Sequence record: MK327947.1
DNA: 64,000 nucleotides
Strand: one strand, 5' to 3'
Source of the DNA: Escherichia phage vB_EcoM_G5211
Made by a program: the position numbers and the translations under genes. Of the stretch, positions 24,202 to 63,515 are shown one piece after another. The number at the start of each line of letters is the position of its first letter. Position 1 is the first letter of the stretch. A model generated the notes under the pieces. The model was not told where the DNA came from and made no database searches. It saw nothing but the letters and a program-made list of their open reading frames with translations.

Positions 24202-24270
24202 TGTTTGATTCTCCTAAGTGGTATCTCGTCTTGATGGTTGTATTGTAGGGGAGTTATCCTCCCCTGTCAA
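24202..24270 (-). promoter_or_regulatory. early promoter plus stem-loop cassette (PeSL-like)
   Basis: TTGACA; stem GGGGAG-ttatc-CTCCCC in the spacer. Confidence 0.55.
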
Positions 24271-24284
24271 CACTTTTTATAAAA

Positions 24285-24452
24285 TTATTTGTTAATTTCT
24301 GGTGCGTTGCTAGGATAGTAACCTTCTTTAACTCCGAGGTATTTCGCAACCATCCCTACAATCTTCTGTGCTACTACAATGTCAAATTTCAGATAATCTT
24401 CGCCGTGGGTTTCAATGATATATGCTTCACATGCTGCTTTAGTCTCGAACAT
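24285..24452 (-). CDS. small early protein (55 aa), paralog A of 27551..27718
   Basis: MFETKAACEAYIIETHGEDYLKFDIVVAQKIVGMVAKYLGVKEGYYPSNAPEINK; nearly identical to the 27551 copy. Confidence 0.5.
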   Translation of the reverse strand: MFETKAACEAYIIETHGEDYLKFDIVVAQKIVGMVAKYLGVKEGYYPSNAPEINK

Positions 24453-24514
24453 TTTGATTCTCCTATTTCGTTTCGGTATGTGTGTAGTATAGGGGATCTC
24501 CCGATCCCCGTCAA
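24453..24514 (-). promoter_or_regulatory. early promoter plus stem-loop cassette (PeSL-like)
   Basis: TTGACG-17-TATACT with GGGGATC-tccc-GATCCCC palindrome in the spacer. Confidence 0.6.
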
Positions 24515-24528
24515 CAACTTTTTTAAAA

Positions 24529-24810
24529 TTATTCGTGATTAGTTTCGATATTGTGCATTTTGCACCAGTTCAGCCAATCGCCCAGATCTTTATAGTTGAT
24601 GCTTTTATCTGCTGCCATCGTTTTTGTCTTGATACCCATATGTGCGTTATGAGTAAGCATTTTTACAGTGAACTCAATTTTATCGCCTTTAGCTTTAACA
24701 TCAACCAGTTTGGTCCACTGGCTACCAGCGCCGCGAATGTTCATACCAACGATGTTTCCGATGTATGCTTCTTTGTTTTTCAGGATTTCGGTTGCTTTGA
24801 TGAATTTCAT
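24529..24810 (-). CDS. small early hypothetical protein (93 aa)
   Basis: ATG behind a cassette. Confidence 0.6.
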   Translation of the reverse strand: MKFIKATEILKNKEAYIGNIVGMNIRGAGSQWTKLVDVKAKGDKIEFTVKMLTHNAHMGIKTKTMAADKSINYKDLGDWLNWCKMHNIETNHE

Positions 24811-24872
24811 TTTTGATTCTCCAGTTCGTTTCGGTATGGGTGTATTATGCTATGTTCTTACTTTGGTGTCAA
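24811..24872 (-). promoter_or_regulatory. early promoter cassette (PeSL-like)
   Basis: TTGACA-17-CATAAT plus conserved leader. Confidence 0.55.
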
Positions 24873-24880
24873 CAACTTTT

Positions 24881-25150
24881 TTAGATATTTTCAGAAATAA
24901 ATTTTAAAACTTGACGTAAATGTTTCTCATCTTTGATAGTCGCCGGAAGTTCTTCTTTTACTTCCTGTGCAAGATAGATATTTCCGTTCCAAGTGAAAGA
25001 TCCGTCTTTGTTTACGCGATAGCTGAACATCCACTCGCAATCATTTTCGATTTCATATACACACAGAAGGGTGTAATCGTTAAAGCTATTGATTTCAAGG
25101 TCGAAGCCGTGACGTTTTGCAAAGTTGGTAGTGGTTTTAGTCAGTGCCAT
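24881..25150 (-). CDS. small early hypothetical protein (89 aa)
   Basis: ATG behind a cassette. Confidence 0.6.
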   Translation of the reverse strand: MALTKTTTNFAKRHGFDLEINSFNDYTLLCVYEIENDCEWMFSYRVNKDGSFTWNGNIYLAQEVKEELPATIKDEKHLRQVLKFISENI

Positions 25151-25219
25151 TGTTTGATTCTCCTAAGTGGTATCTCGTTTCGATGGGTGTATTATGCTAT
25201 AGGCTAGATCAGGTGTCAA
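25151..25219 (-). promoter_or_regulatory. early promoter cassette (PeSL-like)
   Basis: TTGACA-17-CATAAT plus conserved leader. Confidence 0.55.
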
Positions 25220-25243
25220 CAACTTTTTTAATTTTTTGGAAAT

Positions 25244-25269
25244 AAAAAAAGCCGACACTAAGGTCGGCT
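25244..25269 (-). terminator. intrinsic terminator (- strand)
   Basis: AGCCGAC-cuuagu-GUCGGCU followed by U7. Confidence 0.55.
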
Positions 25270-25276
25270 AATAAAA

Positions 25277-25585
25277 TCATTTAGACAAATAATCATTCTG
25301 TGCAATCCGGTCGGCGTATGCTGGTGTTATGTCAATCGCCAGCACTTTAACGCGTGCTTTCTTGCGACCTGTGTTTTCTCGTAACCAGTGCTCATGACCG
25401 TGAACATTTTTATACTGCGATGCTTCTTCGAAGGTACGGATCGGACCTGGATAATCTGCGTAAAGGATCTCTAGGTCTTCGGTGATGTAAAAATATACAT
25501 CATAATTACTGTTCTCTAGTTTAAGCAGAGACTTTCGGAACATTGGGAGATTTTCGCGGGTAAATTCAAAGATATTATCTTTCAT
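25277..25585 (-). CDS. small early protein (102 aa), member 1 of an H-x-H-W paralog family
   Basis: ..YFYITEDLEILYADY..HGHEHW..VKVLAIDI.. pattern shared with 26005, 26298 and 27016. Confidence 0.6.
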   Translation of the reverse strand: MKDNIFEFTRENLPMFRKSLLKLENSNYDVYFYITEDLEILYADYPGPIRTFEEASQYKNVHGHEHWLRENTGRKKARVKVLAIDITPAYADRIAQNDYLSK

Positions 25586-25607
25586 AGTATTATCCTCAAT
25601 AGTTGGA

Positions 25608-25630
25608 TGAAAAGGGGGCTTAACGCCCCC
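25608..25630 (-). terminator. hairpin GGGGGC-guuaa-GCCCCC with U-run (- strand)
   Basis: Between 25636..25923 and the RBS of 25277..25585. Confidence 0.5.
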
Positions 25631-25635
25631 ATATA

Positions 25636-25923
25636 TTAAAACAGACCTTCCTGTACACCGTAGTAGAGTTCATCGCTGATAATTTCATTAATGCGACGGT
25701 GTGCATATTCCTGATTTGCGAAGTTGTCAGCAAGTTCTACTTTAGTTTCGCCGTCATGAGTCCATTTAGTGATAACTTTACCATCTGCAAATTTGAAGTT
25801 GAACTCTTTAGCTACCGCATCGCGTACCAGACGTGCAAACTTATTGTTGCGGATTGCATTGTCGGTTTCGTGTGCAGCGTGAGCGAATTTGTTAACTTTC
25901 AGAGTGATAGTAATGTATGCCAT
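25636..25923 (-). CDS. small early hypothetical protein (95 aa)
   Basis: ATG behind a cassette. Confidence 0.6.
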   Translation of the reverse strand: MAYITITLKVNKFAHAAHETDNAIRNNKFARLVRDAVAKEFNFKFADGKVITKWTHDGETKVELADNFANQEYAHRRINEIISDELYYGVQEGLF

Positions 25924-25998
25924 AATTTGATTCTCCTAGTTAGAAAGTGTATCTCGTTTCGATGGGTGTATTATGCTATACACCCAACCTCATGTCAA
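25924..25998 (-). promoter_or_regulatory. early promoter plus stem-loop cassette (PeSL-like)
   Basis: TTGACA-17-CATAAT with GGGTGTAT..ATACACCC palindrome. Confidence 0.6.
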
Positions 25999-26004
25999 CA
26001 CTTT

Positions 26005-26283
26005 TTATAAAATAATTTTTTGATATTTTTCTATGATGTTCGTGTAATTCACATCAACCGCTAGCACCGTTGCTTCGAATCCACCGTTTAGCCAATGGCT
26101 ATGATCGTGATCGTGAAAGAAACCTAGACCAGTACGAAGACCTTCTTTATATTCGGCGCGTACATTTAGATCATCATCGATAAACAGATAAAACCATGAA
26201 TTTTTACTAGGATTGATGATACAACCTTTCAGATTCGGGAGAATATCACGACTAAGAATAAACTTATCACCTACTTTGAACAT
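26005..26283 (-). CDS. small early protein (92 aa), member 2 of the H-x-H-W paralog family
   Basis: ..FYLFIDDDLNVRAEY..HDHDHSHW..VLAVDV.. Confidence 0.6.
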   Translation of the reverse strand: MFKVGDKFILSRDILPNLKGCIINPSKNSWFYLFIDDDLNVRAEYKEGLRTGLGFFHDHDHSHWLNGGFEATVLAVDVNYTNIIEKYQKIIL

Positions 26284-26297
26284 AATATTTTCCTCAC

Positions 26298-26606
26298 TTA
26301 TAAAGTTTGACCGTTGTTTTTCGCATAATGCTTAATGCGTGCTTGATCTGCTTCCGCTGGTGATAGATTCCATGCAACCACTACAACTTCTGACGCATCG
26401 TCATCCGTTTCTGATACCCAATGGTTGTGATTCATACAGTTATTTGCTATCGAGTGAGCAAATGATTTCATCACTGGAGACGTATAATCATAGTAACGGA
26501 TTTTCAGATTTTCATCAACATACAAGTAGATCGTATAAGGTTTATATTCAGTAACCAGTAACAGACAGTTACGCAATTCTGGGAAAATCTTTTTAGTTAA
26601 TTTCAT
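26298..26606 (-). CDS. small early protein (103 aa from internal ATG), member 3 of the H-x-H-W family
   Basis: ..IYLYVDENLKIRYYDY..NHNHW..VVVVAW..; the ATG lies 1 nt from the stop of the upstream ORF. Confidence 0.6.
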   Translation of the reverse strand: MKLTKKIFPELRNCLLLVTEYKPYTIYLYVDENLKIRYYDYTSPVMKSFAHSIANNCMNHNHWVSETDDDASEVVVVAWNLSPAEADQARIKHYAKNNGQTL

Positions 26607-26607
26607 T

Positions 26608-26817
26608 TTATAATCCTCGGTCGCGGCTATAGTACACGGTACGCCATACAATTTCATGTTTCGTGTCGCTCCAGCACACGATCTCATTTACTCTTAAATC
26701 TTTGTTATCAACAAAAGATGAACATTGTGACGCTTCTTTCATCATTTTATCTGCTGTTTTCTCATCAAATACAGCACAGATTTCTTTATACACTCGATAA
26801 TCTTTAAACTTGCTCAT
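26608..26817 (-). CDS. small early protein (~70 aa), MSKFKDY paralog 1
   Basis: MSKFKDYRVYKEICAVFDEKTADKMMKEASQCSSF..; tandem paralog of 26820..27029. Confidence 0.55.
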   Translation of the reverse strand: MSKFKDYRVYKEICAVFDEKTADKMMKEASQCSSFVDNKDLRVNEIVCWSDTKHEIVWRTVYYSRDRGL

Positions 26818-26819
26818 AA

Positions 26820-27029
26820 TTAACACCAATCAAGAGTTTTTGAGAAAACCTCTATCCATTGTTGAGTATATGCGGTTTCTTTCCATGATACAATACCAGT
26901 AGAATAATGGTTTTTGTTTCCAGAAAATGACGGGCATTTTGATGCATCTTCCATCATCTTTTCGGCGAACTCTGGTTCGTATACTCGCAAGATCTGTTGA
27001 TATGCTTTATAATCTTTAAATTTGCTCAT
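26820..27029 (-). CDS. small early protein (~70 aa), MSKFKDY paralog 2
   Basis: MSKFKDYKAYQQILRVYEPEFAEKMMEDASKCPSF.. Confidence 0.55.
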   Translation of the reverse strand: MSKFKDYKAYQQILRVYEPEFAEKMMEDASKCPSFSGNKNHYSTGIVSWKETAYTQQWIEVFSKTLDWC

Positions 27030-27294
27030 AATCATTCACTACCTTATCAGCTTCTTTTGTTGTTTTTACATCAACTGCGATAACCCGTAAAGGTTCGTCA
27101 TGGTTCCACCAATGATCGTGAATATCGGCTTGTGATTTATCACCAAAGGAATCACGAATATCATTTTTACTTTTATAGCTAATGTGACCGTCATAGTCAA
27201 CATAAAGGTAATTATCGAAAATCGGCGTTTTTAAGATCATGCCGAAAAATCTTTCTTTGTGTGTCTTATCCAGCGTTGCAGTAATTCGCATCAT
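27016..27294 (-). CDS. small early protein (92 aa), member 4 of the H-x-H-W paralog family
   Basis: ..YLYVDYDGHISY..HDHWW..VIAVDV.. Confidence 0.6.
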   Translation of the reverse strand: MMRITATLDKTHKERFFGMILKTPIFDNYLYVDYDGHISYKSKNDIRDSFGDKSQADIHDHWWNHDEPLRVIAVDVKTTKEADKVVNDYEQI

Positions 27295-27306
27295 AATATA
27301 TTCCTC

Positions 27307-27486
27307 TTAGAAAGGGATGGTCATTTCTTGAGCTTGTACATTCTCGTTAGGATTAAACTTCATCCAACCAATATTGTCTACCAGCATATGCACATTTTTA
27401 TCATATCCTACGTGAGTAGTCAACACTAAATGTGATTTACCTTCAACGATGATTTCCATGTACTTCTGAACTTCGATAGCTTTCAT
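27307..27486 (-). CDS. small early hypothetical protein (59 aa), not in the ORF track
   Basis: ATG directly after a cassette leader; translation MKAIEVQKYMEIIVEGKSHLVLTTHVGYDKNVHMLVDNIGWMKFNPNENVQAQEMTIPF. Confidence 0.5.
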   Translation of the reverse strand: MKAIEVQKYMEIIVEGKSHLVLTTHVGYDKNVHMLVDNIGWMKFNPNENVQAQEMTIPF

Positions 27487-27547
27487 TTTGATTCTCCGTT
27501 TGTTGTCTTGATGGGAGTATCTTACTACTCCCTTTAATCATTGTCAA
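27487..27547 (-). promoter_or_regulatory. early promoter plus stem-loop cassette (PeSL-like)
   Basis: TTGACA; stem GGGAGTA-tcttac-TACTCCC. Confidence 0.55.
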
Positions 27548-27550
27548 CTA

Positions 27551-27718
27551 TTATTTGTTAATTTCTGGTGCGTTGCTTGGATAGTAACCTTCTTTAACAC
27601 CCAGATATTTTGCAACCATTCCGGTGATCTTCTGTGCTACTACGATATCGAATTTCAGGTAGTCTTCACCGTGTTTTGCTACAATGTATGCTTCGCATTC
27701 TGCTTTAGTCTGGAACAT
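27551..27718 (-). CDS. small early protein (55 aa), paralog B of 24285..24452
   Basis: MFQTKAECEAYIVAKHGEDYLKFDIVVAQKITGMVAKYLGVKEGYYPSNAPEINK. Confidence 0.5.
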   Translation of the reverse strand: MFQTKAECEAYIVAKHGEDYLKFDIVVAQKITGMVAKYLGVKEGYYPSNAPEINK

Positions 27719-27782
27719 TTTTGATTCTCCTATATCTCGTTGGTATGTGTGTATTATAGGGGATCTCCCGATCCCCTGTCAA
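27719..27782 (-). promoter_or_regulatory. early promoter plus stem-loop cassette (PeSL-like)
   Basis: TTGACA-18-TATAAT with GGGGATC-tccc-GATCCCC palindrome. Confidence 0.6.
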
Positions 27783-27795
27783 CAACTTTTTTGAA

Positions 27796-28272
27796 TTATT
27801 TTTCTTGATGCTCGCGCTCGTACTTTTCGAAATAAAATTCTACTGGCTGGTCATGAATTGACAGCAAGCCAAAGCGTTTAGCCGCTCGCAATCCCATATT
27901 GCGCTGAATGTACTTCTGGAAGTTCTCGCGTATACACTTACGCCAGTATTCTAAGCCCATACAGCTTTTATAAAGATTGCATTGTACACACGCCGGATTC
28001 ATGTTATCAAGTATATCATGTTCCGGTTTATGCATTCCTACAACCTTATACTTCCACGACCCATCATCATTACGGGCAATTCGTCCATTTTCATCATAGA
28101 CTACCTTTGAGCGTCGCAATACTGGTTTGATATGGTCTGCGTGCCAGCGATCCCCTAGTTCCTCGCCACAATAGGCACAACGCCCACCGTATTTCATTTT
28201 CAGGATCTGGCGTTGCTCTTTCTTTGACAATTTTTTAGGTTTAGGGGCTTTCGCCCCTTCATTATCACACAT
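27796..28272 (-). CDS. HNH endonuclease (free-standing, abutting the DNA ligase gene)
   Basis: CAYCGEEL..WHADHIKP..NMNPACVQCN matches the HNH Cys/His pattern; start overlaps the 3' end of gene 30. Confidence 0.75.
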   Translation of the reverse strand: MCDNEGAKAPKPKKLSKKEQRQILKMKYGGRCAYCGEELGDRWHADHIKPVLRRSKVVYDENGRIARNDDGSWKYKVVGMHKPEHDILDNMNPACVQCNLYKSCMGLEYWRKCIRENFQKYIQRNMGLRAAKRFGLLSIHDQPVEFYFEKYEREHQEK

Positions 28273-29761
28273 CGAATACCTCTTTTACTGTATTTGCCGT
28301 GGTCTTGTCGTAGCGAATACGTTTGATGATTGGGAGAAATAAAGAGAACTCCGGTTCATCTTCTTTACGTGATTTGCTGCGGATATACCCGTTGCATGTC
28401 ATCTCAATGACTTTTCCAATCAGGTTATGACGGTCAGCCCATAACATTTCTCGGTCGAGTTCATTTCGACGATCGAACGGAATTACACGTTCGATACCAT
28501 CATCACCTTTTTCGGTTGTGGTGTCGGTTAATCCCGATCCGGTGTTAGTCATCATTCGTCCGCACGCACTACGGACAGTAAAACCGCCTACCTTATTGGG
28601 GTCTTTACTATGCGGATATACATCAACAATTTCCGCGTCGAAGTCAATAACTTCTTTAAATTTAACCTGATCTTTACTGCGACGATCTTCAAATACACCA
28701 TGTAAATTTTTAAGGATAATACCTTCTAAGCCCATGTTTACATAGCGATGATATACTTCGCGAGCTTCATCGATATTGTTAACTACAGTGTTTTCGATTA
28801 TCTGAACACGAGGATCGTTAAGTTCTTCAACAATCTGTTTTAGTTCTTCGAATCGATCTTTATATTGCTTCGTTGCTTTCTCGTTTCCGTAATACACATC
28901 ACGGTCGATAACATCCCAGACAGTGTAAACAATACATTGGGCTTCTTCTTTTGGAATAGTTCCTTTCAGTGATTTGTTGAGGATACCATTTCCGGTCTGA
29001 CGATCTGCAACAACGGATTCTTTCACTGCTTCCGCTACTGGCGTTAATGGCATTTCATCTTCTTCAAATATCCATGACAGAGTACCATCATAAACGCTCT
29101 CAACGAAGTTCTGCGCTGGTGTTTGCGAAAGGGTAGGCATATATACCAATTCGCCATCTAGAACAATTCCACGGCCTCGTAGACGCTCTAAAACCACAAA
29201 CAAATCATCAAGCCCTTGATAGGTATTACCTGAACGGGTATAGATTGCTAATGTTTCCCCGTCAATATCAGCCATCCCACGAGCGCCATCGCTTTTAAGT
29301 TGTGCATACGCCGGATATTTGATATTGGCAATGGTCTTATCAGAACATGACGATGCAAGGTGGCACGGCTGCTGAGGAATCAGTTTCTTCCATACCTTGT
29401 TTGCGGTGGTAGCGGAACAACCGCATTCTAGGTCTCGATTCAGGACCATCATTGCAACTTTAGCATCGTCTTCCGACAAGCAAGTCAGAGTATCGGTAAC
29501 TAGCTGTAATGCTGCATTACCAGTTATTTGACGCGTGGCAAGTTTATTTTTAAAGACCTGTAATGCGCCAGATAAAGACAATACAGATGAATAACGCGAC
29601 GGTTTATCGTATTTCTTTACGCCAAACGTAACCTGTTTGCAATATGCCAGATAAAAGCATTCTTTCAGCGTTTCATTGCTTGCAGATTCTTTCAGGATCT
29701 TTTCTTTCAGCGATGTTTTGTCTGTTGCTGCAAGCTGATTAATGATATTAAGAATTGACAT
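28265..29761 (-). CDS. 30: ATP-dependent DNA ligase gp30
   Basis: From the internal ATG (MSILNIINQ..); KSDGAR adenylation motif region and overall parallel to T4 ligase; the track ORF starts at GTG 29767. Confidence 0.9.
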   Translation of the reverse strand: MSILNIINQLAATDKTSLKEKILKESASNETLKECFYLAYCKQVTFGVKKYDKPSRYSSVLSLSGALQVFKNKLATRQITGNAALQLVTDTLTCLSEDDAKVAMMVLNRDLECGCSATTANKVWKKLIPQQPCHLASSCSDKTIANIKYPAYAQLKSDGARGMADIDGETLAIYTRSGNTYQGLDDLFVVLERLRGRGIVLDGELVYMPTLSQTPAQNFVESVYDGTLSWIFEEDEMPLTPVAEAVKESVVADRQTGNGILNKSLKGTIPKEEAQCIVYTVWDVIDRDVYYGNEKATKQYKDRFEELKQIVEELNDPRVQIIENTVVNNIDEAREVYHRYVNMGLEGIILKNLHGVFEDRRSKDQVKFKEVIDFDAEIVDVYPHSKDPNKVGGFTVRSACGRMMTNTGSGLTDTTTEKGDDGIERVIPFDRRNELDREMLWADRHNLIGKVIEMTCNGYIRSKSRKEDEPEFSLFLPIIKRIRYDKTTANTVKEVFDV

Positions 29762-30227
29762 TTTCACCTCGTTTTGTTAAACGTTCACGAATATCATTGA
29801 GGATACTACAAAATTCCGATTCAGTCAATATAGTCTTTAACGGATCAGTTCCACCTATGCTATGACGTAATTTCTTATTTCCGGTAGCGAGTAATGCTTT
29901 ACAAAATTCTGGGTTATTCCGTGCCATCGTAACAAATGCCAGATGTACCAGTCTGTAATAATGCTCACTCATTCGATGAATAGGGCGACCCTGAAAATAT
30001 AACATGTGATTCTCAATCTTTTCAGTTCTTCCGGTTCTTTTTGCTTTGCCACCGTGCATCAAAAAGATTTCTCTTTGTCTCTGAGGGTTCTTAAATCTTA
30101 GCCCCTGTAAAAATCCTTCTGTGCTGTTAATATCGCAACCAAATAGACGGAATGGTCTTTTATTGAAATTGCTCAATTCACCCGATGGATAAGGTCCACC
30201 CGCATAGATATCAATTTCAGAAGTCAT
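29748..30227 (-). CDS. NADAR/YbiA-like (DUF1768) protein
   Basis: PSGELSNFNKRPF..EGFLQGLRF and ALLATGNKKL resemble the NADAR family signature. Confidence 0.6.
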   Translation of the reverse strand: MTSEIDIYAGGPYPSGELSNFNKRPFRLFGCDINSTEGFLQGLRFKNPQRQREIFLMHGGKAKRTGRTEKIENHMLYFQGRPIHRMSEHYYRLVHLAFVTMARNNPEFCKALLATGNKKLRHSIGGTDPLKTILTESEFCSILNDIRERLTKRGENVNS

Positions 30228-30381
30228 TGAAACTAATCTCGCTAATCAGAGAGAACGGATCATAATCGTCATTAGGAATATCGATAGTAATCGAATGAGG
30301 ATTTACCCATACACCAAACTGGCCTTCTTCGGTGAATACTTCGGTATGGATTTCGTGGATGTTTACATTCATAGTTTTCAT
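30217..30381 (-). CDS. small hypothetical protein (55 aa from internal ATG)
   Basis: ATG with AAGGAA RBS; the track ORF starts at an upstream TTG. Confidence 0.45.
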   Translation of the reverse strand: MKTMNVNIHEIHTEVFTEEGQFGVWVNPHSITIDIPNDDYDPFSLISEISFNDF

Positions 30382-30420
30382 AATAAATTCCTTAATAATC
30401 AATAACTTACAAAATCATAT

Positions 30421-30451
30421 AGCCAAAATATAGGCGGGATTATTTCCCGCC
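30421..30451 (-). terminator. hairpin GGCGGGA..TCCCGCC with U-rich tail downstream of gene 31
   Basis: Inverted repeat immediately after the gp31 stop. Confidence 0.4.
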
Positions 30452-30462
30452 GTTTAAAATCA

Positions 30463-30786: not shown

Positions 30787-30827
30787 AATTTTATTACCTC
30801 TTCAAATCAATACAGTTTAATGATGAA

Positions 30828-31641: not shown

Positions 31642-31662
31642 AATATAATCCTCACATAGTAA

Positions 31663-35127: not shown

Positions 35128-35152
35128 TATCCTTTCCTCACGTCACAACAAA

Positions 35153-35170
35153 GGCGGGATTTCTCCCGCC
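35153..35170 (-). terminator. hairpin GGCGGGA-gaaa-UCCCGCC (attenuator-like)
   Basis: Inverted repeat between the stop of 35178..35576 and the denA RBS. Confidence 0.35.
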
Positions 35171-35177
35171 CACCTTA

Positions 35178-35576: not shown

Positions 35577-35638
35577 CTTGATACTCCTTAGTTGTTTTGG
35601 TATGGGAGTATCTTACTACTCCCGTGATATGCTGTCAA
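35577..35638 (-). promoter_or_regulatory. early promoter plus stem-loop cassette (PeSL-like)
   Basis: TTGACA; stem GGGAGTA-tcttac-TACTCCC. Confidence 0.55.
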
Positions 35639-35796: not shown

Positions 35797-35863
35797 TTGA
35801 TTCTCCTTAAAGTGTATTTCGTTTCGATGGGGGTATATTACTACCCCCGTTTCATGCTGTCAA
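35797..35863 (-). promoter_or_regulatory. early promoter plus stem-loop cassette (PeSL-like)
   Basis: TTGACA; stem GGGGGTA-tattac-TACCCCC. Confidence 0.55.
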
Positions 35864-36082: not shown

Positions 36083-36146
36083 TTTGATTCTCCTTTGTTT
36101 CGTTTCGATGGGGGTATATTACTACCCCCCCGTTATTCAGTGTCAA
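36083..36146 (-). promoter_or_regulatory. early promoter plus stem-loop cassette (PeSL-like)
   Basis: TTGACA; stem GGGGGTA-tattac-TACCCCC. Confidence 0.55.
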
Positions 36147-36372: not shown

Positions 36373-36425
36373 ATGTTCCTCCGTTTCGATGTGCGTATTA
36401 TGCTATGGCAAGATCAGATTGTCAA
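36373..36425 (-). promoter_or_regulatory. early promoter cassette (PeSL-like)
   Basis: TTGACA-17-CATAAT plus conserved leader. Confidence 0.55.
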
Positions 36426-36435
36426 CACCCAATAA

Positions 36436-36461
36436 CAAAAAAGTCGCCACTATGGGCGACT
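36436..36461 (-). terminator. intrinsic terminator (- strand)
   Basis: GUCGCC-cauagug-GGCGAC followed by U6. Confidence 0.5.
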
Positions 36462-36472
36462 TTGAACAAACA

Positions 36473-39193: not shown

Positions 39194-39253
39194 AATAAAA
39201 TCCTCACTTGTTTTTGATGGTTGTATTATAGCGGGGATTTCTCCCCGCGTCAA
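39194..39253 (-). promoter_or_regulatory. early promoter plus stem-loop cassette (PeSL-like)
   Basis: TTGACG-17-TATAAT with GCGGGGA-tttc-TCCCCGC palindrome. Confidence 0.6.
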
Positions 39254-55224: not shown

Positions 55225-55250
55225 AGCGGGGATTATCCCCGCTTTTCTAA
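55225..55250 (+). terminator. hairpin plus T-run after gene 36
   Basis: AGCGGGG-auua-UCCCCGCU followed by UUUUC. Confidence 0.5.
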
Positions 55251-55287
55251 ATAATATTATTCTAACAACCGTTAAGGATTTTATAAA

Positions 55288-58068: not shown

Positions 58069-58104
58069 CAACAAGGGGGCGTTGCCCCCTTTGGAGTATA
58101 AATT

Positions 58105-58218
58105 ATGGCAGTAGTTGGTGTTCCTGGTTGGATTGGAAGTTCAGCCGCAAATGAAACAGGACAACGATGGATGAGTCAAGCGGCTGGTCAATTAAGATTG
58201 GTGTTCCTTGCTGGATGA
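58105..58218 (+). pseudogene. 38: gp38 adhesin N-terminal segment (37 codons) in a different frame from the gp38 body
   Basis: GGAG RBS then [32 protein letters not shown] (conserved gp38 N-terminus), running into a TGA at 58216; the body continues in the -1 frame. Confidence 0.6.
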
Positions 58219-58904
58219 GTCAATTTGCAGGTCGCTCGCGAGAAATTATTCATACTGTAGGAGCAAACCACAATTTTAATGGTCAGTGGTTCCGTGATAG
58301 ATGCTTTGAAGCTGGCGGTGCACCTATTGTATTCAATATTGTTGGTGATATCGTTTCTTATTCTAAAGATGTACCGCTTTTCTTTATGTATGGTGACACT
58401 CCTAACGAATACGTTGTCCTTAATATTCATGGTGGTGTCCATATGTGGGGTCGAGGTGGTAATGGTGGATACACTCACTCAGGTGGAGATGGTAACGGTA
58501 CACAAGGCGGTCATGTTATTCAAAATGATATCGGTGGACGGCTTCGTATTTGGAACTACGGTGTTATAGCTGCTGGCGGTGGTGGCGGTGGTGGTATTGC
58601 ATATCGTCCACACTCAGGGGCAAACTGGCAAGATATCGGTGGCGGTGGCGGTCGACCTTTCGGTGGTGCTGGCGGTGGCGGTTATTCCGGTGGTGCTGCT
58701 TCTTATGAAGGTCCGGGTGGTGGTTACAACTATGGTAACGCACACTCCGGCGCGGGTGGTAATGCTGGCGCTGCTGGTCAGAATGCATGGTCTGATGGCG
58801 GTAAAGTTCTTAAAGTTGGTGTTGGTGGTGCTTCTGGTCATGCCGTGTTTGGATCTTCTCCAACTTGGGGCGCTGTAGGGACAATTTATGGACCTTACAT
58901 TTAA
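58167..58904 (+). CDS. 38: gp38 receptor-recognising adhesin, body with glycine-rich motifs (T2-type)
   Basis: ..[41 protein letters not shown].. plus poly-Gly motifs; no RBS before this in-frame ATG. Confidence 0.8.
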
Positions 58905-58963
58905 CCGTTAAAAAAGAATTAAGGAAAAATCCCAGGGAAGGGAACTACTAAGGAGAAACGGCT

Positions 58964-59203
58964 ATGGTCTATAATATCGTCATTGGTGCTTTGTCTAATT
59001 TCGGAATGAAATTATTGTCAAAGTTAATTAGTGAAAAGATGCTCACTAAAATTTTCTTCTATTGCGCTCGTCGTCTTGCGGCTTATACCAATACGCCAAT
59101 TGATGATCGTTTTGTGGAAGAACTTTATAAGGAGTTTAATAAAGATCAGTCAGAAGATAGTAACGAGCAAGATAAACCTAGTGATAGTCAACTACCTAAA
59201 TAA
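58964..59203 (+). CDS. small protein with hydrophobic N-terminus (79 aa) between genes 38 and t
   Basis: AAGGAGAA RBS; N-terminal MVYNIVIGALSNFGMKLLSKLI; acidic C-terminus. Confidence 0.55.
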   Translation: MVYNIVIGALSNFGMKLLSKLISEKMLTKIFFYCARRLAAYTNTPIDDRFVEELYKEFNKDQSEDSNEQDKPSDSQLPK

Positions 59204-59236
59204 GAGTACACTGTCATAGTTATCTTAGGGCATTAT

Positions 59237-59893
59237 ATGCAAGTTTCTGAAAAAGGGAAAGACTTTGCTATCTCAAATGTCCTGCGCGCTATTTTCACAA
59301 CTAAAAGCACGGAGTTGCTCGTACTTCGTGTTTTTGCTGCCGTCGTGTTGTCCATATTAGCATTTGTCGTTTATAGTAAAAACGAGTTATTTGCGCTTTA
59401 TAAAGAGACTCGTTATGAGACTTATGCTCACATTCTCCAGGTAGAGAAAGACCGCAATTTTGATAATGCAGCACAGGAGCAGTTACAGATAGTTCATGTG
59501 TCGGCTGATGCCGATTTTTCTGCTGTTTTTAGTTTTCGTCCGAAAAACCTAAACTATTTTGTTGATTTGGTGGCATATGAAGGAAAGTTACCGCATACAA
59601 TCGATGAAAAAAATTTAGGCGGATTCCCTATCAATAAAACGAGTGAAGAATATCGTAGGCATCTTTTAGGTAAATCATATTTTACCGATAAAGATTTCCA
59701 GTATATTCCATCAAGAGAAAAGAAATTAGAGAATATCGATATAGGGTTTATGTATTCTTGCCCTATATTCAATCTCGATAATGTCTATTCTGGTAGTATC
59801 GCCATTGCATGGAAGAATAAACCGGATATTGACATTGAGAATTTAGATACTCTTTGCAATCAATCTGCCAGAATCCTCGGAAGGATTAGATAA
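59237..59893 (+). CDS. t: holin T
   Basis: 218 aa; ..LEQLQIVHVSADADFSAVFSFRPKNLNYFVDLVAYEGKLP.. parallels T4 holin; N-terminal TM; C-terminal ..ARILGR.. Confidence 0.9.
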   Translation: MQVSEKGKDFAISNVLRAIFTTKSTELLVLRVFAAVVLSILAFVVYSKNELFALYKETRYETYAHILQVEKDRNFDNAAQEQLQIVHVSADADFSAVFSFRPKNLNYFVDLVAYEGKLPHTIDEKNLGGFPINKTSEEYRRHLLGKSYFTDKDFQYIPSREKKLENIDIGFMYSCPIFNLDNVYSGSIAIAWKNKPDIDIENLDTLCNQSARILGRIR

Positions 59894-59898
59894 CTTAA

Positions 59899-59930
59899 AG
59901 GGGAAGCCTTTCGGCCTCCCCTTCTTTTTA
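59899..59930. terminator. bidirectional terminator between convergent genes
   Basis: GGGGAAGCC-tttc-GGCCTCCCC with T-rich runs on both sides. Confidence 0.55.
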
Positions 59931-60176
59931 TTGGCGCATAGAAGCCCCTGAATCACATTTTGACGCTGTATGATGAAAACAGGTAGCGTACCAGTCATCG
60001 GCTTGTTTGTCTTCGTCAGAAAACGCGTAATTGCGTTGTATGCCGTTTTCTACTTTGACCAGTGCAATAGCTGTTTCTGGAAGATCAATCAATCGGACAA
60101 AATCACCATCTTCCCACTCTACACGAGCAATATCATAGCCCATCTCAACGTATACAATCGCTTGTTCTAATTTCAT
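59928..60176 (-). CDS. hypothetical protein (82 aa)
   Basis: ORF convergent with t; no motif recognised. Confidence 0.5.
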   Translation of the reverse strand: MKLEQAIVYVEMGYDIARVEWEDGDFVRLIDLPETAIALVKVENGIQRNYAFSDEDKQADDWYATCFHHTASKCDSGASMRQ

Positions 60177-60496
60177 TCTGGAAACTTCCCGTAAACATTC
60201 TCTGCCAGCTTACGTGCATCTTTTACAATATCTTTCATGTAATGACTATAATTTTTAGCTAGATCAATGATACAATCAACAAAGAAGTAATAGCGTCGCA
60301 GTGCTACCAGCCCAACATCTTCAAGATGACCATTTTCTCCAATCGCTGAAATGTGTTTAAATTCCTTTCGGATCGCGTCCATCGCTACATTAACTTCTTT
60401 TATAATATCTTTAGTATTATATGCACCTCGACTAATCAAAATTTTGGTTAGGTCTTCTGCTTTTTCGTGAAAGTTGTCAATTTCAAACTCGATCAT
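60173..60496 (-). CDS. hypothetical protein (~107 aa), paralog of 60611..60943
   Basis: From the internal ATG with GAGAGGTGA RBS; C-terminus ..ENVYGKFPE resembles ..ENIFGKF of the neighbour. Confidence 0.55.
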   Translation of the reverse strand: MIEFEIDNFHEKAEDLTKILISRGAYNTKDIIKEVNVAMDAIRKEFKHISAIGENGHLEDVGLVALRRYYFFVDCIIDLAKNYSHYMKDIVKDARKLAENVYGKFPE

Positions 60497-60610
60497 AATC
60501 ACCTCTCATAATTTCACGCTGTTGTTTCAACATTTTTTCGTGGTTTGCTAATTCTATACCTTGTAATAGCATAACCAGTGCAATTTTCAATGATTCATCA
60601 TCTTTCATAA

Positions 60611-60943
60611 TCAAAATTTACCGAAAATATTCTCTGTCATAATTCTTGCTTCGTCGATTATTTTCGTCATGTTCATGGTGTAGTTATGATCATTTAGTGC
60701 CTTAATGACAACGAGCAAGGAATCTAAAAACACTCGATACCGTGTATATTCTACGCTATTTGTGAATACCGATGTTTTCTCTACTTTATCGATCAGATAG
60801 CCTAAAACCGATAGCGCCTCGTTGACTTCCCTTGTTACTTTATCGGCGCTAAACAGCACCGGATAAAGACGCGGTGTGATTAACCGCGCTGCCTCTTTCA
60901 ATTCGGTCGCTTTCCATGATTCATATTTGTCATAGTTAAACAT
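60611..60943 (-). CDS. hypothetical protein (110 aa), paralog of 60173..60496
   Basis: Shared length and C-terminal motif. Confidence 0.55.
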   Translation of the reverse strand: MFNYDKYESWKATELKEAARLITPRLYPVLFSADKVTREVNEALSVLGYLIDKVEKTSVFTNSVEYTRYRVFLDSLLVVIKALNDHNYTMNMTKIIDEARIMTENIFGKF

Positions 60944-60955
60944 TGTATAATCTCC

Positions 60956-61288
60956 TTACAGATGAAAACCTGTTACAATAACCGCATCGATCATACCGCT
61001 AGGAATAAACGGTTCGCCCTCTTTTATTTCAACTTTGAATTGATGCCATTTCGCTAATACTTCTTCCGGTACACCCAGCGATTCGGCGTCTGCTTTAGTT
61101 TCATCCATAATCCAACTAGGCTGCATGAGAGCATAGTTTACATAGTCCATTTCTGGGGTCATGTCATCAATGTTAATATATTTGCAGTTGACGCGTTTCA
61201 GAATTTCAAATTCTTTATTATCAACCTGTACCATGTATAATTCAGTAGTTTCTGGAATCAGTTCCCACACAATCAGTACATTTTTCAT
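60956..61288 (-). CDS. hypothetical protein (110 aa)
   Basis: ATG-initiated ORF in a tightly packed - strand array. Confidence 0.55.
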   Translation of the reverse strand: MKNVLIVWELIPETTELYMVQVDNKEFEILKRVNCKYINIDDMTPEMDYVNYALMQPSWIMDETKADAESLGVPEEVLAKWHQFKVEIKEGEPFIPSGMIDAVIVTGFHL

Positions 61289-61296
61289 AGTTCACC

Positions 61297-61665
61297 TCAC
61301 TTAACAAAGATTTTCTTTAATGCTTTCAGGATCGTTGCTTCCGGCGCTTCTTCCGGTGGAGGGAGCAATTCTACCACTTCCTCTTCCAACTCGATATAGT
61401 CTACCAGATATTCTACATAGAATGCAAGTGCTTCCATGAAATTAGATGCTACATCCGATTCACCACACGCGCCTACATGCATTGTATAAACATCACTGCG
61501 ATCAAGTTTGTGGATGCTTCCCAGATAGTTCCGGTTATACCAGACTTCCCACACTTTCAGCTTTCCGGTTTTGGTTGATGTTTTATAATCGGTTTCGTAA
61601 TGATGCAATTGACGTTGCAGATCATTGATAATAACACATTTTTCGTAATTGTTTTGAATTTCCAT
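61297..61665 (-). CDS. hypothetical protein (122 aa)
   Basis: ATG-initiated ORF. Confidence 0.55.
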   Translation of the reverse strand: MEIQNNYEKCVIINDLQRQLHHYETDYKTSTKTGKLKVWEVWYNRNYLGSIHKLDRSDVYTMHVGACGESDVASNFMEALAFYVEYLVDYIELEEEVVELLPPPEEAPEATILKALKKIFVK

Positions 61666-61675
61666 GATGCAATCC

Positions 61676-61867
61676 TCACTTATCGTTCAGAAGTTCTAAA
61701 ACTTTCTGTCGTACTTTGTCAATATTAGTTGATTCAAAAACTGTACGGTATCCCCAGCTTTGACCGTATGAGCGGTTGCAATCTCCATATCCCCATTGTT
61801 CAACCTGATAGTATTCAAGGAATGGATGCTGTCGAACTATGATACCATCGCGATTAAAAATTACCAT
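61676..61867 (-). CDS. small hypothetical protein (63 aa)
   Basis: ATG-initiated ORF. Confidence 0.5.
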   Translation of the reverse strand: MVIFNRDGIIVRQHPFLEYYQVEQWGYGDCNRSYGQSWGYRTVFESTNIDKVRQKVLELLNDK

Positions 61868-61890
61868 AATATAATCCTCACGTCAACAAC

Positions 61891-62178
61891 TTATTTTCGG
61901 TTGTGGTCACGATATGTTTTAAAATATCCCTCGTACCACGGTAAAACATCTGGATTTTTACCACTATACAGACCTTTAACCATCATGTCAATAAGGCCAT
62001 CCGGTGTTTGATAGTTTCCAGCTTTTATAAGCTCTCTGATTAAAATCTCTCTGTATATGTCTTTCGGATCTTCGTAATCAACTTGTATTGTGGTTGTGGT
62101 CTCATTCAATTTGGTTTCTGGAGTATCTCGCATCACATCCCACCAATCTTTTGTGATCTTCATGTTATTGAATTGCAT
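61891..62178 (-). CDS. hypothetical protein (95 aa)
   Basis: ATG-initiated ORF. Confidence 0.55.
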   Translation of the reverse strand: MQFNNMKITKDWWDVMRDTPETKLNETTTTIQVDYEDPKDIYREILIRELIKAGNYQTPDGLIDMMVKGLYSGKNPDVLPWYEGYFKTYRDHNRK

Positions 62179-62189
62179 AATTTAACCTC

Positions 62190-62948
62190 TTACTTGCAAA
62201 CGTATTGATCTACATCAATTGCGCCACCGAATGTAGGATGACGTTTTTCAAATCTAATAGTTCCGTCGTTTGGTTCGAAAACGGAGTATTCATATAGATC
62301 TTTCTTGCCAACATTCTTATAAAACCCGCCTTTAGTCATAACGGTTTCTTGTACGTTTGCTTTGTGTACGTTGTATTCGTCAATGTATACAAAATCAACC
62401 ATCTTCCCATTTTTAATGGTTACTTTAAGATCTCCTGGTTGATTTCCATATTTTGCATACAGTGGCGCTTCTTTAATTTTTGTGGAAATTCCATCTTTCA
62501 TACTCCACTCATAACGAACGGTGCATTGATAGGTAAAAGTTTCGACCTTCGGTTCTTCTACCACTTTTGCTTCCTGTTTCGGTTGTTCTTCTTCAACCTT
62601 CGCAGAAGTCTCTGAATCGCTTTCTGACGCGGTTTCTTCTTTAGGTAATACGTTCATCAAGTTTTGGATTTGAGCGTTGTATACAGCCTCCAGTGGCTGA
62701 ATCTGCCCGATATTGATCATTGTATCACGAACAGTTTTATTCCAGTTTCGTTGCTCTTGTTTCAGAGACGGATCAATCTTAACAGCCTTAACATACACCT
62801 CATGAAGTTTAGAGTCCAGTGCGGAGATAGACTCATTAGCACAAATAAACTTCTCTGATTTGGTAGTAGCTTTAGCGCAATCAAAGGACGCAGCGTTAGC
62901 ACCGAAAGCAGTAGCAGAAAGAACGATAGCAGCGATAATGTTTTTCAT
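62190..62948 (-). CDS. secreted/periplasmic early protein (252 aa) with Sec-type signal peptide
   Basis: N-terminus MKNIIAAIVLSATAFGANAAS; acidic linker; preceded by a cassette. Confidence 0.65.
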   Translation of the reverse strand: MKNIIAAIVLSATAFGANAASFDCAKATTKSEKFICANESISALDSKLHEVYVKAVKIDPSLKQEQRNWNKTVRDTMINIGQIQPLEAVYNAQIQNLMNVLPKEETASESDSETSAKVEEEQPKQEAKVVEEPKVETFTYQCTVRYEWSMKDGISTKIKEAPLYAKYGNQPGDLKVTIKNGKMVDFVYIDEYNVHKANVQETVMTKGGFYKNVGKKDLYEYSVFEPNDGTIRFEKRHPTFGGAIDVDQYVCK

Positions 62949-63011
62949 AATATATTCCTCAGTGTTTTGTCTTGATGGGAGTATCTTACTACTCCCTTAA
63001 TCCGGTGTCAA
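62949..63011 (-). promoter_or_regulatory. early promoter plus stem-loop cassette (PeSL-like)
   Basis: TTGACA; stem GGGAGTA-tcttac-TACTCCC. Confidence 0.55.
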
Positions 63012-63018
63012 CTACTTT

Positions 63019-63174
63019 TTAAATTTCTTCTACAGTAAAGTCTTCAATGTTGTTGTGCTCGGCGAACGTTGCCAGACCAGCATTCCATGCATCATCCTCA
63101 GAGAAGAATACACCGTAACGTTCATATCCTTTAGCGCCTTCAAATTTAACCATTAATTTGTGAGTATGTTTCAT
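63019..63174 (-). CDS. small early hypothetical protein (51 aa from internal ATG)
   Basis: ATG directly after a cassette leader. Confidence 0.45.
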   Translation of the reverse strand: MKHTHKLMVKFEGAKGYERYGVFFSEDDAWNAGLATFAEHNNIEDFTVEEI

Positions 63175-63234
63175 TTTGATTCTCCTTCGTTGTCTTGATG
63201 AGTTTAGTATAGGGGATCGCCGATCCCCTGTCAA
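63175..63234 (-). promoter_or_regulatory. early promoter plus stem-loop cassette (PeSL-like)
   Basis: TTGACA-17-TATACT with GGGGATC-gcc-GATCCCC palindrome. Confidence 0.6.
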
Positions 63235-63244
63235 CAACTATTTT

Positions 63245-63457
63245 TTAATTTTTACCCGCTCGTGCATTAATACGCATTTTCTGCATAGCCATGATCTGGC
63301 TTACTGCTTCTTCTTTACGTTCTTGCGTGATAACGTGACCAGATTCCGCAAACTCTCCCGCAACTTCTTCTACGATCTCGCGAATTTGAGAACGTCCAAA
63401 GATGCGGTTTCCTTCGTAGCCCATAAACTCGGTTACTACTTGCTCGATAGATTTCAT
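63245..63457 (-). CDS. small early hypothetical protein (70 aa from internal ATG)
   Basis: ATG directly after a cassette leader. Confidence 0.5.
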   Translation of the reverse strand: MKSIEQVVTEFMGYEGNRIFGRSQIREIVEEVAGEFAESGHVITQERKEEAVSQIMAMQKMRINARAGKN

Positions 63458-63515
63458 GTGATTCTCCTTTCGTTTGGTATGGGAGTATGTTACTACTCCC
63501 ATTTCTTTACGTCAA
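63458..63515 (-). promoter_or_regulatory. early promoter plus stem-loop cassette (PeSL-like)
   Basis: TTGACG; stem GGGAGTA-tgttac-TACTCCC. Confidence 0.55.

Follow-up and report, generated by a model that had tools for sequence, protein, structure and literature searches.

The repeated promoter-hairpin units in this DNA are promoter-early stem-loops (PeSLs), a known element already described in RB49-like T4-type coliphages. They are best read as composite early cassettes in which the embedded hairpin most likely terminates or attenuates the transcript arriving from upstream, with the pairing under selection and the stems derived mainly from recombined types; we consider this reading probable. 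The window analyzed, a stretch of 64,000 nucleotides from Escherichia phage vB_EcoM_G5211 (MK327947.1), comes from a Krischvirus (RB49-like) phage with 95 to 97% identity to Krischvirus genomes, and RB49 (L008) carries the same promoter cores. The setting is that of PeSLs, a T4-type genome with the elements placed between small open reading frames (ORFs) of the hyperplastic region, and the segment from alt to gp30 is crowded with ORFs of 50 to 130 amino acids. The promoter boxes match the sigma-70 −35 and −10 hexamers at 10 to 12 of 12 positions, the 25 nt upstream are 60 to 88% A+T, and the 3′ end presents GGAG or GAGG followed by an ATG within 70 nt and an open frame. Across 16 genomes, the gene content between PeSLs varies and the cores are exchanged at orthologous sites.

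The published accounts (Arbiol 2010, PMC2839356; Comeau 2014, PMC4122927) give PeSLs sigma-70 boxes with an AT-rich stretch upstream, G-T pairs, and a GN-loop-CN stem-loop that lies either in the −35/−10 spacer or across the −10. The elements of the window share with the PeSLs of RB49 and phi1 the genus, the hyperplastic location, the layout (AT-rich region, TTGACA-N17-TATAAT, GN-loop-CN, Shine-Dalgarno [SD] sequence and ATG), the two main stem-loop positions, the G-T pairs, and the role in cassette exchange, with no structural difference. Promoter and terminator/attenuator activity has been reported for PeSL193/192, PeSL206/205, and PeSL211/210, and the stem-loop of PeSL211/210 lowered lacZ expression like rrnB T1 (PMC2839356; PMC4122927). 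PeSL211/210 is a class A copy in the terms used below, and this one stem-loop is the extent of the experimental terminator-like support in the literature. Base-pair compensation or covariation is not discussed in the text of either paper.

All 13 inverted repeats of the preliminary description were recovered with their positions and arms, each within a minus-strand promoter of the form TTGACA/G-N17-19-TAnnnT. That description held that the hairpin always forms in the spacer that separates the −35 box from the −10 box, but this is true of only six copies, whereas eight enclose the −10 hexamer and at least six sister promoters have no hairpin; the architecture was thus misread for eight of the 13 named copies. 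Nor are its six stem classes aligned variants of a single helix, as at least four registers are present.

In the six spacer copies (class A; minus strand, as are all features below), the spacer measures 17 to 18 nt. The core at 22109 to 22138, which the preliminary description had missed, consists of TTGACA, an 18-nt spacer formed by the hairpin GGGGGGTC-gga-GATCCCCT (22114 to 22132, with one G·U pair, G·T in DNA), and TATAAT. At 24242 to 24270, the hairpin AGGGGAG-gataa-CTCCCCT (24247 to 24265) occupies the whole 17-nt spacer, and its outer A-T pair joins the last base of the −35 to the first base of the −10. The core at 24486 to 24514 has TTGACG, the hairpin GGGGATC-ggga-GATCCCC (24492 to 24509) with a GNRA loop, and TATACT, the sixth base of the −35 being the first G of the stem. 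The remaining three are found at 27753 to 27782 (18-nt spacer with AGGGGATC-ggga-GATCCCCT, 27758 to 27777), at 39225 to 39253 (TTGACG, GCGGGGA-gaaa-TCCCCGC at 39231 to 39248, TATAAT), immediately downstream of the nrdA stop codon, and at 63206 to 63234 (AGGGGATC-ggc-GATCCCCT, 63211 to 63229).

In the eight other copies, the loop together with the first one or two bases of the 3′ arm makes up the −10 hexamer, and the 3′ arm covers approximately −7 to −1. Two belong to class B2, namely, the core at 21856 to 21890, where GGGTGTAT-atcata-ATACACCC (21856 to 21877) surrounds the hexamer CATAAT (21862 to 21867), and that at 25963 to 25998, where TGGGTGTAT-agcata-ATACACCCA (25963 to 25986) also surrounds CATAAT. 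The class B1 cores at 27513 to 27547, 35604 to 35638, and 62977 to 63011 carry the same hairpin, GGGAGTA-gtaaga-TACTCCC (27513 to 27532, around the −10 hexamer TAAGAT; 35604 to 35623; 62977 to 62996). The hairpin GGGGGTA-gtaata-TACCCCC is found in the cores at 35829 to 35863 (35829 to 35848), where the −35 directly abuts the upstream stop codon, and at 36110 to 36146 (36110 to 36129), where the spacer is 19 nt. The last B1 core, at 63479 to 63515, has ATGGGAGTA-gtaaca-TACTCCCAT (63479 to 63502).

RNA folding of the 14 promoter cores that bear a hairpin gives −11.9 to −15.8 kcal/mol, with z scores of −1.7 to −4.6 relative to dinucleotide shuffles, whereas five hairpin-less sister promoters give 0 to −4.7 kcal/mol and z scores near 0. 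Perfect hairpins with stems of 6 bp or more number 129 in the window as a whole, versus 99 ± 10 in shuffles, and a search of all of the window with Rfam covariance models returned no hits at gathering thresholds.

The embedded hairpins and the ordinary terminators of the window show a complementary distribution. PeSL-type promoters without a hairpin are found at 24872, 25219, 36425, 44104, 44487, and 45581. In all 14 promoters with an embedded hairpin, the gap between the upstream gene's stop codon and the −35 is 0 to 14 nt and holds no terminator, whereas in three of the six hairpin-less promoters the gap is 47 to 61 nt and contains a canonical hairpin and T-run terminator (Fisher P of ∼0.018 for 14 versus 6 promoters in the window; over all 16 genomes, this exclusivity is a trend only, with a P value of 0.1). 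Thus, the promoter at 25191 to 25219 is preceded by AGCCGAC-cttagt-GTCGGCT and a T-run (25250 to 25269; whole unit, 25191 to 25269), and that at 36397 to 36425 by AAAGTCGCC...GGCGACTTT and a T-run (36440 to 36463; whole unit, 36397 to 36463). The promoters at 24872, 44104, and 45581 have neither hairpin nor terminator; the first of these (24844 to 24872) keeps CATAAT-ACACCC and lacks the 5′ arm. At sites with an ordinary terminator (orthologous groups 8 and 12), the 3′ arm is still there and the 5′ arm has decayed. The stem-loop appears to stand in for an ordinary terminator wherever the space between genes leaves no room for one.

The embedded hairpins are nevertheless not canonical terminators. 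In a minus-strand scan for a U-tract (at least five T's in eight bases), none of them passed and seven stand-alone terminators did, and they are not called in the ARNOLD-based annotation of the relative G2494, so that canonical intrinsic termination is not expected. The bases 3′ of the stem are instead UAUAAU or UAUACU in class A and AUCAAG or AUACCG in class B.

The preliminary description also proposed that pairing is kept while the stem sequence changes. The compensation is real and in register, but it is small and restricted to four of 23 base pairs; at these four, G·U intermediates are present and A·C is absent. One is in class B1 (11 A-U, 8 G-C, 4 G-U, and no A·C), two are neighboring pairs in class B2 that switch jointly (an orthologous site has the G-U intermediate), and one is in class A (8 U-A, 2 G-C). 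The B2 case is seen at the orthologues of the core at 25963 to 25998, which have either GGGGATAT/ATATCCCC or, as an intermediate with G·U, GGGGGTAT/ATATCCCC. Pair counts on aligned copies thus reveal paired substitutions within classes, so the stems do not differ by descent from distinct cassettes only. The covarying pairs probably reflect very few, linked events. Pairing is also broken in places, as the outer pair is interrupted on one side in 5 of 23 B1 alleles, and one orthologue (in L050) has no 3′ arm.

Constraint on the arms is clearer. In the aligned stems, 96 to 98% of cells are paired, versus 29 to 73% after a shift of the 3′ partner by one to three columns. Segregating sites number 14 of 80 in the arms, versus 21 of 51 in the adjacent unpaired spacer (P = 0.004) and 38 of 84 in the leader (P = 0.0002), and at orthologous sites the arms are two to three times less variable than that spacer. 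It could be argued that the constraint is on sequence and that the G-run and C-run are promoter features, for instance, a C-rich segment at −3 to −1, with incidental complementarity. The early promoters of RB49, RB69, and 44RR do favor C over positions −3 to −1, and either T or C at position −12 (Nolan 2006), and the 3′ arm ACACCC is retained in the hairpin-less promoters 24872 and 25219. The GGG/CCC core pairs are invariant, as this explanation would have it; being invariant, they are uninformative on pairing, for or against. However, four pairs are altered on both sides in register, slid partners are far less often paired, and the C-runs of class A lie in the spacer and not at −3 to −1. The spacers of hairpin-less promoters lack a G-run, which shows that a promoter does not need one there. 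Sequence constraint by itself is accordingly a highly improbable explanation.

Most of the differences between classes are those of different hairpins in different registers, exchanged as whole promoter cores among related phages. In orthologous groups 7, 9, 11, and 13, whole cores have been replaced or cassette types have crossed over within the loop, and cores have been swapped from class B to class A (group 7) and from GGGGAG to GGGGATC (groups 9 and 10). Chimeras (group 13; L111) combine the 5′ arm of one type with the −10 and 3′ arm of another. The 3-nt loops GGT (15 copies) and ACC (12 copies) are mutual reverse complements between identical flanks, the pattern left when strand switching inverts a hairpin loop. 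A crossover has been mapped inside a loop (Arbiol 2010, PMC2839356). These swapped cores, chimeras, inverted loops, and the in-loop crossover are what would be expected if structure were not selected at all, the arms being copied from one another by quasi-palindrome template switching or hairpin-templated repair and the classes being source cassettes spread by PeSL recombination. Such an origin is unlikely to account for the whole pattern, because the arms are less variable than the neighboring unpaired bases and the hairpins are missing exactly at the sites of ordinary terminators. Moreover, a symmetrical mechanism would be expected to yield A·C and G·U equally often and to invert 4-nt loops too, yet only G·U and sense-strand GNRA loops are seen.

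The strand asymmetry shows in several counts. The 36 stem types contain about nine wobble pairs; G·U is confined to the sense strand, and a true A·C does not occur. Of 57 unique hairpins, 38 are more stable as sense RNA and 9 as antisense RNA, and differences of at least 3 kcal between strands favor the sense strand in 10 of 10 cases. Each of the 19 unique 4-nt loops reads GNRA in the sense direction. The G·T pairs and GNRA loops of the sense strand fit non-template single-stranded DNA as well as RNA. Arm constraint, GNRA loops, sense-only G·U, and the distribution of stop-codon gaps support selection on sense-strand pairing, by which the stem-loop appears to be kept. The step made in the preliminary description from covariation to selection on structure therefore stands as regards these four lines, but most of the between-class differences that it rested on are due to descent and recombination.

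The structure might alternatively act in DNA, as a cruciform or hairpin that tunes promoter strength with supercoiling or exposes the non-template bases of the −10 in a single-stranded loop (class B), or by offering a structure-specific target through which PeSLs become hot spots of recombination. The hairpin is located within the promoter core, the class B loop is the −10 element, and the loop inversions show that DNA does adopt the hairpin with some frequency. Non-template single-stranded DNA can likewise accommodate G·T pairs and GNRA-like loops, or be stable with them. In published work, stem-loops blocked sequencing reactions on single-stranded template; mini-circle crossovers were located in or beside the stem-loop (PMC2839356). 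A cruciform, however, needs both strands paired, and each G·T is an A·C on the other strand, yet these variants persist. Arms of 7 to 9 bp are also short for cruciform extrusion. The hairpin-less PeSL promoters do not differ in −35, −10, or leader, which means that the promoter can do without the hairpin, and promoter tuning gives no account of the complementary distribution with upstream terminators. Action in DNA is, on this evidence, quite unlikely.

In the favored explanation, a PeSL comprises a UP region rich in A/T, a sigma-70 promoter close to consensus, an embedded G-run/loop/C-run hairpin, a conserved short leader, and an SD sequence with ATG. The hairpin would lie inside the promoter because the upstream stop codon is 0 to 14 nt from the −35, which leaves no space for a separate 3′ signal, and it may be sited where sigma-70 accepts almost any sequence. 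One such place would be the 17- to 18-nt spacer, exactly filled by a stem of 7 to 8 bp and a loop of 3 to 5 nt, and the other the surroundings of the −10, with the C-rich −6 to −1 segment as 3′ arm. Transcription presumably starts about 7 nt past the −10, as judged from standard spacing, and the cassette's own transcript would then not contain the hairpin. Since the hairpin ends at or before −1, it would form only in sense-strand read-through RNA from the upstream gene, where it may serve that gene as terminator, attenuator, or 3′-end-protecting hairpin and so insulate adjoining early transcription units. For class B, we infer a mechanism at the RNA level, and likewise that release proceeds without a U-tract. 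Arm complementarity would be maintained by purifying selection on sense-strand pairing, and the variety of stems would come mainly from several recombining cassette types, with a few true compensatory changes via G·U. A dual use is conceivable but very unlikely, in which the hairpin is a U-tract-less terminator in read-through RNA (with UAUAAU of class A as a weak-hybrid release segment) and, in class B, also a non-template-strand hairpin that holds the −10 bases, including A-11, single stranded and so aids or gates the sigma-70 open complex.

Several known systems resemble PeSLs in part. Like intrinsic terminators, the embedded hairpins have a G/C-rich stem of 7 to 9 bp and a short, often GNRA, loop 13 to 24 nt past a stop codon, and they resemble the stand-alone terminators of the phage itself, such as GGGCGGGA-gaaa-TCCCGCC at 35152 to 35171. 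Unlike them, they have no U-tract, and what follows the stem on its 3′ side is the −10 hexamer in class A and the transcription start region in class B. The inverted repeats in the hairpin promoters of the phage N4 virion RNA polymerase and in cruciform-regulated synthetic promoters can form a DNA hairpin; PeSLs differ in having full conserved sigma-70 boxes and functioning without the hairpin, and a cruciform is hard to reconcile with their strand asymmetry. The N4 promoters have no sigma-70 boxes and are recognized by a virion-packaged single-subunit RNA polymerase, an enzyme type that is presumably not involved in PeSLs. Quasi-palindromes with inverted hairpin loops are familiar from chloroplast intergenic hairpins, and templated mutations from T4 rII. 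The GGT/ACC loops between identical perfect arms are of this kind, but such inversions account for part of the PeSL variation and not for the function of the element. The “morons” of lambda-type phages are also small accessory genes with their own promoter and terminator, whereas in PeSLs promoter and stem-loop are fused into a single conserved repeat, and homologous exchange is mediated by this repeat itself (Arbiol 2010, PMC2839356).

The present analysis adds no new type of element. What it adds to the PeSL papers is modest and consists of the pair-by-pair counts, the sense-strand asymmetry, the loop inversion, and the distribution relative to stand-alone terminators and stop-to-(−35) distance. 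PeSLs are regarded as drivers of gene shuffling in the variable parts of T4-type phage genomes and are believed to make each small accessory gene its own transcription unit; selection on sense-strand pairing, together with the apparent replacement of terminators, supports the published terminator/attenuator idea and would explain the place of the hairpin inside the promoter.

All 13 inverted repeats listed in the preliminary description were recovered with the arms it reported, and each lies on the - strand within a promoter of the form TTGACA/G, 17 to 19 nt, TAnnnT, with A/T-rich sequence upstream and a Shine-Dalgarno sequence and ATG downstream. These cassettes are promoter-early stem-loops (PeSLs), an already known element. 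The 14 hairpin-bearing cores of the window follow two architectures. In class A (24270, 24514, 27782, 39253, 63234, and 22138, the last missing from the earlier list; all -), a stem of 7 to 8 bp and a loop of 3 to 5 nt fill the spacer exactly, and the outer pair often joins the last base of the -35 box to the first base of the -10 box. In class B (21890, 25998, 27547, 35638, 35863, 36146, 63011, and 63515; all -), the 3' part of the spacer serves as the 5' arm and most of the -10 hexamer as the loop, with the 3' arm extending from the end of the -10 box to about -1. The statement that a perfect hairpin is always present in the spacer holds for 5 of the 13 listed copies but neither for the others nor for at least six sister promoters that share the boxes and leader and carry no hairpin (24872, 25219, 36425, 44104, 44487, and 45581). 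The folding energy of the 14 hairpin cores ranges from -11.9 to -15.8 kcal/mol (z of -1.7 to -4.6), compared with 0 to -4.7 kcal/mol (z of about 0) for cores without one, showing that the hairpins are beyond chance.

The stems also reach into the promoter boxes. At 24509-24514 and 39248-39253 (-) the -35 box reads TTGACG, precisely where the 17-nt spacer carries a hairpin with a 4-nt loop, so that the sixth -35 base is the first stem G. The 27782 copy, with an 18-nt spacer, has TTGACA, whose A pairs with the T of TATAAT. The sense strand of nine of the 14 hairpins contains GGAG (22138, 24270, 24514, 27782, 39253, 27547, 35638, 63011, and 63515), the target motif of the T4 endoribonuclease RegB, a diverged gene for which is present in RB49 (PMC3014915); here the motif may follow from the G-richness of the stems or may mark a processing site.

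The same cassette was described in RB49 and phi1 by Arbiol et al. (2010; PMC2839356), who showed promoter activity for PeSLs, noted GN-loop-CN stems with G-T pairs, and placed crossovers within the stem-loop or next to it. One of the RB49 elements, PeSL211/210, belongs to class A (TTGACA GGGGAT-cacgt-ATCCCC TATACT). Different stem consensus sequences occur in other T4-like lineages (Comeau et al., 2014; PMC4122927), and a word search of these two texts retrieved no mention of compensation or covariation. Early promoters of RB49 favor C at -3 to -1 and T or C at -12 (Nolan et al., 2006), and this preference for C makes the class B 3' arm partly a promoter feature. The hairpin-less promoters at 24844-24872 and 25191-25219 (-) keep the 3' arm, CATAAT-ACACCC, next to an unrelated 5' spacer. 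Both observations fit a C-rich segment from -6 to -1 that is a promoter feature onto which hairpins are built.

Approximately 60 Krischvirus genomes (RB49, phi1, JSE, GEC-3S, and others) are 95 to 97% identical to 24000-30000 and 21500-28300. The genes of the alt-region part of the window are encoded on the - strand, and open reading frames (ORFs) of 50 to 130 amino acids crowd the interval between alt and DNA ligase; Rfam and tRNA scans of the whole window gave no match. Immediately upstream of the DNA ligase gene, the ORF at 27796-28272 (-), whose counterpart in relatives is annotated as an HNH endonuclease, is likely a mobile element on the margin of the variable region. Two 55-amino-acid ORFs, 24285-24452 and 27551-27718 (-), are paralogues with 89% identity, each with a class A PeSL directly upstream (cores 24486-24514 and 27753-27782); this pair is a cassette duplication inside the variable region, and two copies are also found in relatives (orthologous promoter group 0). 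Given that a protein-anchored IMG/VR search for orthologous regions returned only two loci, the alt-to-nrd region was gathered from GenBank phage records of 15 relatives, from which 265 PeSL-type promoters were extracted and 30 orthologous sites were grouped by downstream gene. Few further cassettes came from the second variable region, near 63 kb, as retrieved for four relatives.

Orthologous sites show replacement of whole cores: class B by class A (group 7), GGGGAG by GGGGATC (groups 9 and 10), and GGGAGTA+TAAGAT+ACTCCC by GGGGGTA+TAATAT+ACCCCC (group 11). Most of the differences between sequence classes that had been read as compensatory are therefore different cassettes, exchanged by recombination and in different registers. 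A few true compensatory pairs do exist within classes. Class B1 has seven pairs, five of them invariant, and one that covaries (A-U 11, G-C 8, G-U 4, with no A·C); 96.9% of its cells are paired versus 47 to 73% with the partners slid. Class B2 has eight pairs, four invariant, with two adjacent covarying pairs (U-A 9 and G-C 3; G-C 9, A-U 2, and G-U 1) and 97.9% of cells paired versus 29 to 64%; all three B2 states are present at the site orthologous to window copy 25998. In class A with odd loops, five of eight pairs are invariant, one covaries (U-A 8, G-C 2), another position has one G-U, and 96.3% of cells are paired versus 40 to 61%. It is highly improbable that the arms answer to sequence constraint alone, a reading contradicted by these in-register double changes and by hairpin-less promoters without the G-run. 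Some G·U “intermediates” are crossovers that combine the 5' arm of one type with the -10 box and 3' arm of the other (group 13; comparison sequence L111), 5 of 23 B1 alleles have a broken outer pair, and the 3' arm is gone from one orthologue (L050). In all, covariation involves 4 of 23 pairs and probably goes back to very few events. These paired changes within classes speak against stems that differ by descent from separate source cassettes alone, the refuting case named in the preliminary description, but by themselves they are thin support for selection on pairing. The original observation is confirmed in part, and its interpretation as selection on structure is likewise partly supported.

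In all 14 hairpin-bearing window promoters the upstream stop codon lies 0 to 14 nt before the -35 box, and the embedded hairpin begins 13 to 24 nt past that stop. Three hairpin-less promoters (25219, 36425, and 44487) have a gap of 47 to 61 nt with a canonical terminator, a G/C hairpin followed by a T-run; the other three in the window have neither an embedded hairpin nor a terminator. An upstream terminator therefore accompanies none of 14 hairpin-bearing versus three of six hairpin-less promoters in the window (Fisher P of ∼0.018). Over 16 genomes, with an automatic terminator rule, this exclusivity is a trend only (P = 0.1), and the window analysis with stop distances is clearer. All relatives keep CATAAT-ACACCC at the 25219 and 36425 sites (groups 8 and 12), next to a degenerate 5' arm. 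None of the embedded hairpins has a T-tail, and a terminator scan of the - strand called seven stand-alone terminators and no embedded hairpin. The class A stem is followed by UAUAAU or UAUACU, and the class B stem by no U-rich sequence. The annotations of G2494 (ARNOLD-based) and of GEC-3S (promoters and terminators) list the cassettes purely as promoters. A long bulged hairpin, AAACGGGGACTAG...CTAGCCCCGTTT, with TTTC after it, overlaps the promoter at 19449-19477 (-) that precedes the ORF at 18592-19416. This hairpin looks like a canonical terminator enclosing the -10 box; it is kept in 11 compared sequences, with a single-base T-tail variant in L001 only.

In class B orthologous sets, chosen regardless of hairpin quality, segregating sites number 14 of 80 in the arms versus 21 of 51 in the unpaired part of the spacer (P = 0.004), 38 of 84 in the leader (P = 0.0002 versus arms), and 0 of 36 in the -35 box. 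Because the alleles share phylogenetic history, these counts and the following ones on stem types, hairpins, and loops are indications and not exact tests. In the 36 stem types of 32 sequences, the internal non-Watson-Crick pairs are nine G·T or T·G and no true A·C. The lone A·C (GGGACTAGT/ACTAGCCCC) is an artifact of gapless pairing and belongs to the bulged terminator at 19477, and a T·C mismatch (GGTAGTA/TACTCCC) likewise arose from gapless pairing in the wrong register. For 57 unique excised hairpins, stability is higher for the sense RNA in 38 and for the antisense RNA in 9, with 10 ties, and all 10 differences of at least 3 kcal favor the sense strand; the asymmetry is seen only with excised hairpins, as whole cores with flanks give 52 versus 51. 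The 4-nt loops of spacer hairpins are all GNRA on the sense strand (GGGA 12, GAAA 6, and GCGA 1 unique contexts), and those of 3 nt are seen in either orientation (GGT 15 and ACC 12 unique contexts). In the AGGGGATC...GATCCCCT hairpin (window 22114-22132, L001 and L007 versus L008; also groups 0 and 10), GGT and its reverse complement ACC alternate as the loop while arms and flanks stay identical, which is the signature of a hairpin loop inverted through strand switching. The GGC and GCC loops at the 63211-63229 site (Brandy, L137) were discarded as proof of such an inversion, since a single change at the central base could account for them as well.

A purely mutational or recombinational origin of arm complementarity would fit this inversion, the core swaps, and the chimeras, but is unlikely because it leaves unexplained why the asymmetry is one of G·U pairs only, why GNRA loops keep one orientation, why the arms vary so little, and why embedded hairpins and terminators are distributed in a complementary way. 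The inversion also shows that the DNA hairpin forms at least occasionally; a role at the DNA level, as a cruciform, in presentation of the -10 box, or as a recombination target, nevertheless fits the strand asymmetry and the relationship to terminators poorly and is quite unlikely.

Most likely, the cassette is a compact fusion in which the downstream promoter incorporates the upstream gene's 3' hairpin, as almost no intergenic space is left for it. The hairpin would be placed where sigma-70 reads least, in the spacer or in the bases around the -10 box. As the stem ends at or before -1, the promoter's own transcript should lack it, given standard -10 to +1 spacing, and the hairpin would form in read-through RNA only, where attenuation, termination, or 3'-end protection would insulate adjacent early units. 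An attenuator or terminator function was proposed by Arbiol et al. (2010) and tested there on one class A stem-loop, that of PeSL211/210, which cut lacZ like rrnB T1. With nothing U-rich after the class B stem, a pause, a processing site, or 3' protection is equally possible for class B.

Novelty is low because the element is already known as PeSL; the present analysis adds modest covariation, a signature of the sense strand, and a rule that ties the embedded hairpin to intergenic distance and stand-alone terminators. An IMG/VR DNA-pattern scan with the four outer stem pairs left free retrieved mainly unrelated sigma-70 promoters and approximately 12 Krischvirus-like loci. In unrelated phage contigs (L022 and L090, L029, L106, and L115), a perfect 7-bp hairpin surrounds the -10 box of sigma-70-type promoters, for example, AGGAGTA-gtaaaa-TACTCCT followed by CTTTTTTT. 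Four such hairpins among the non-Krischvirus matches exceed the chance expectation for four further Watson-Crick pairs ((1/4)^4, ∼0.4% per match), and promoters that overlap a terminator at the -10 box may be more widespread.
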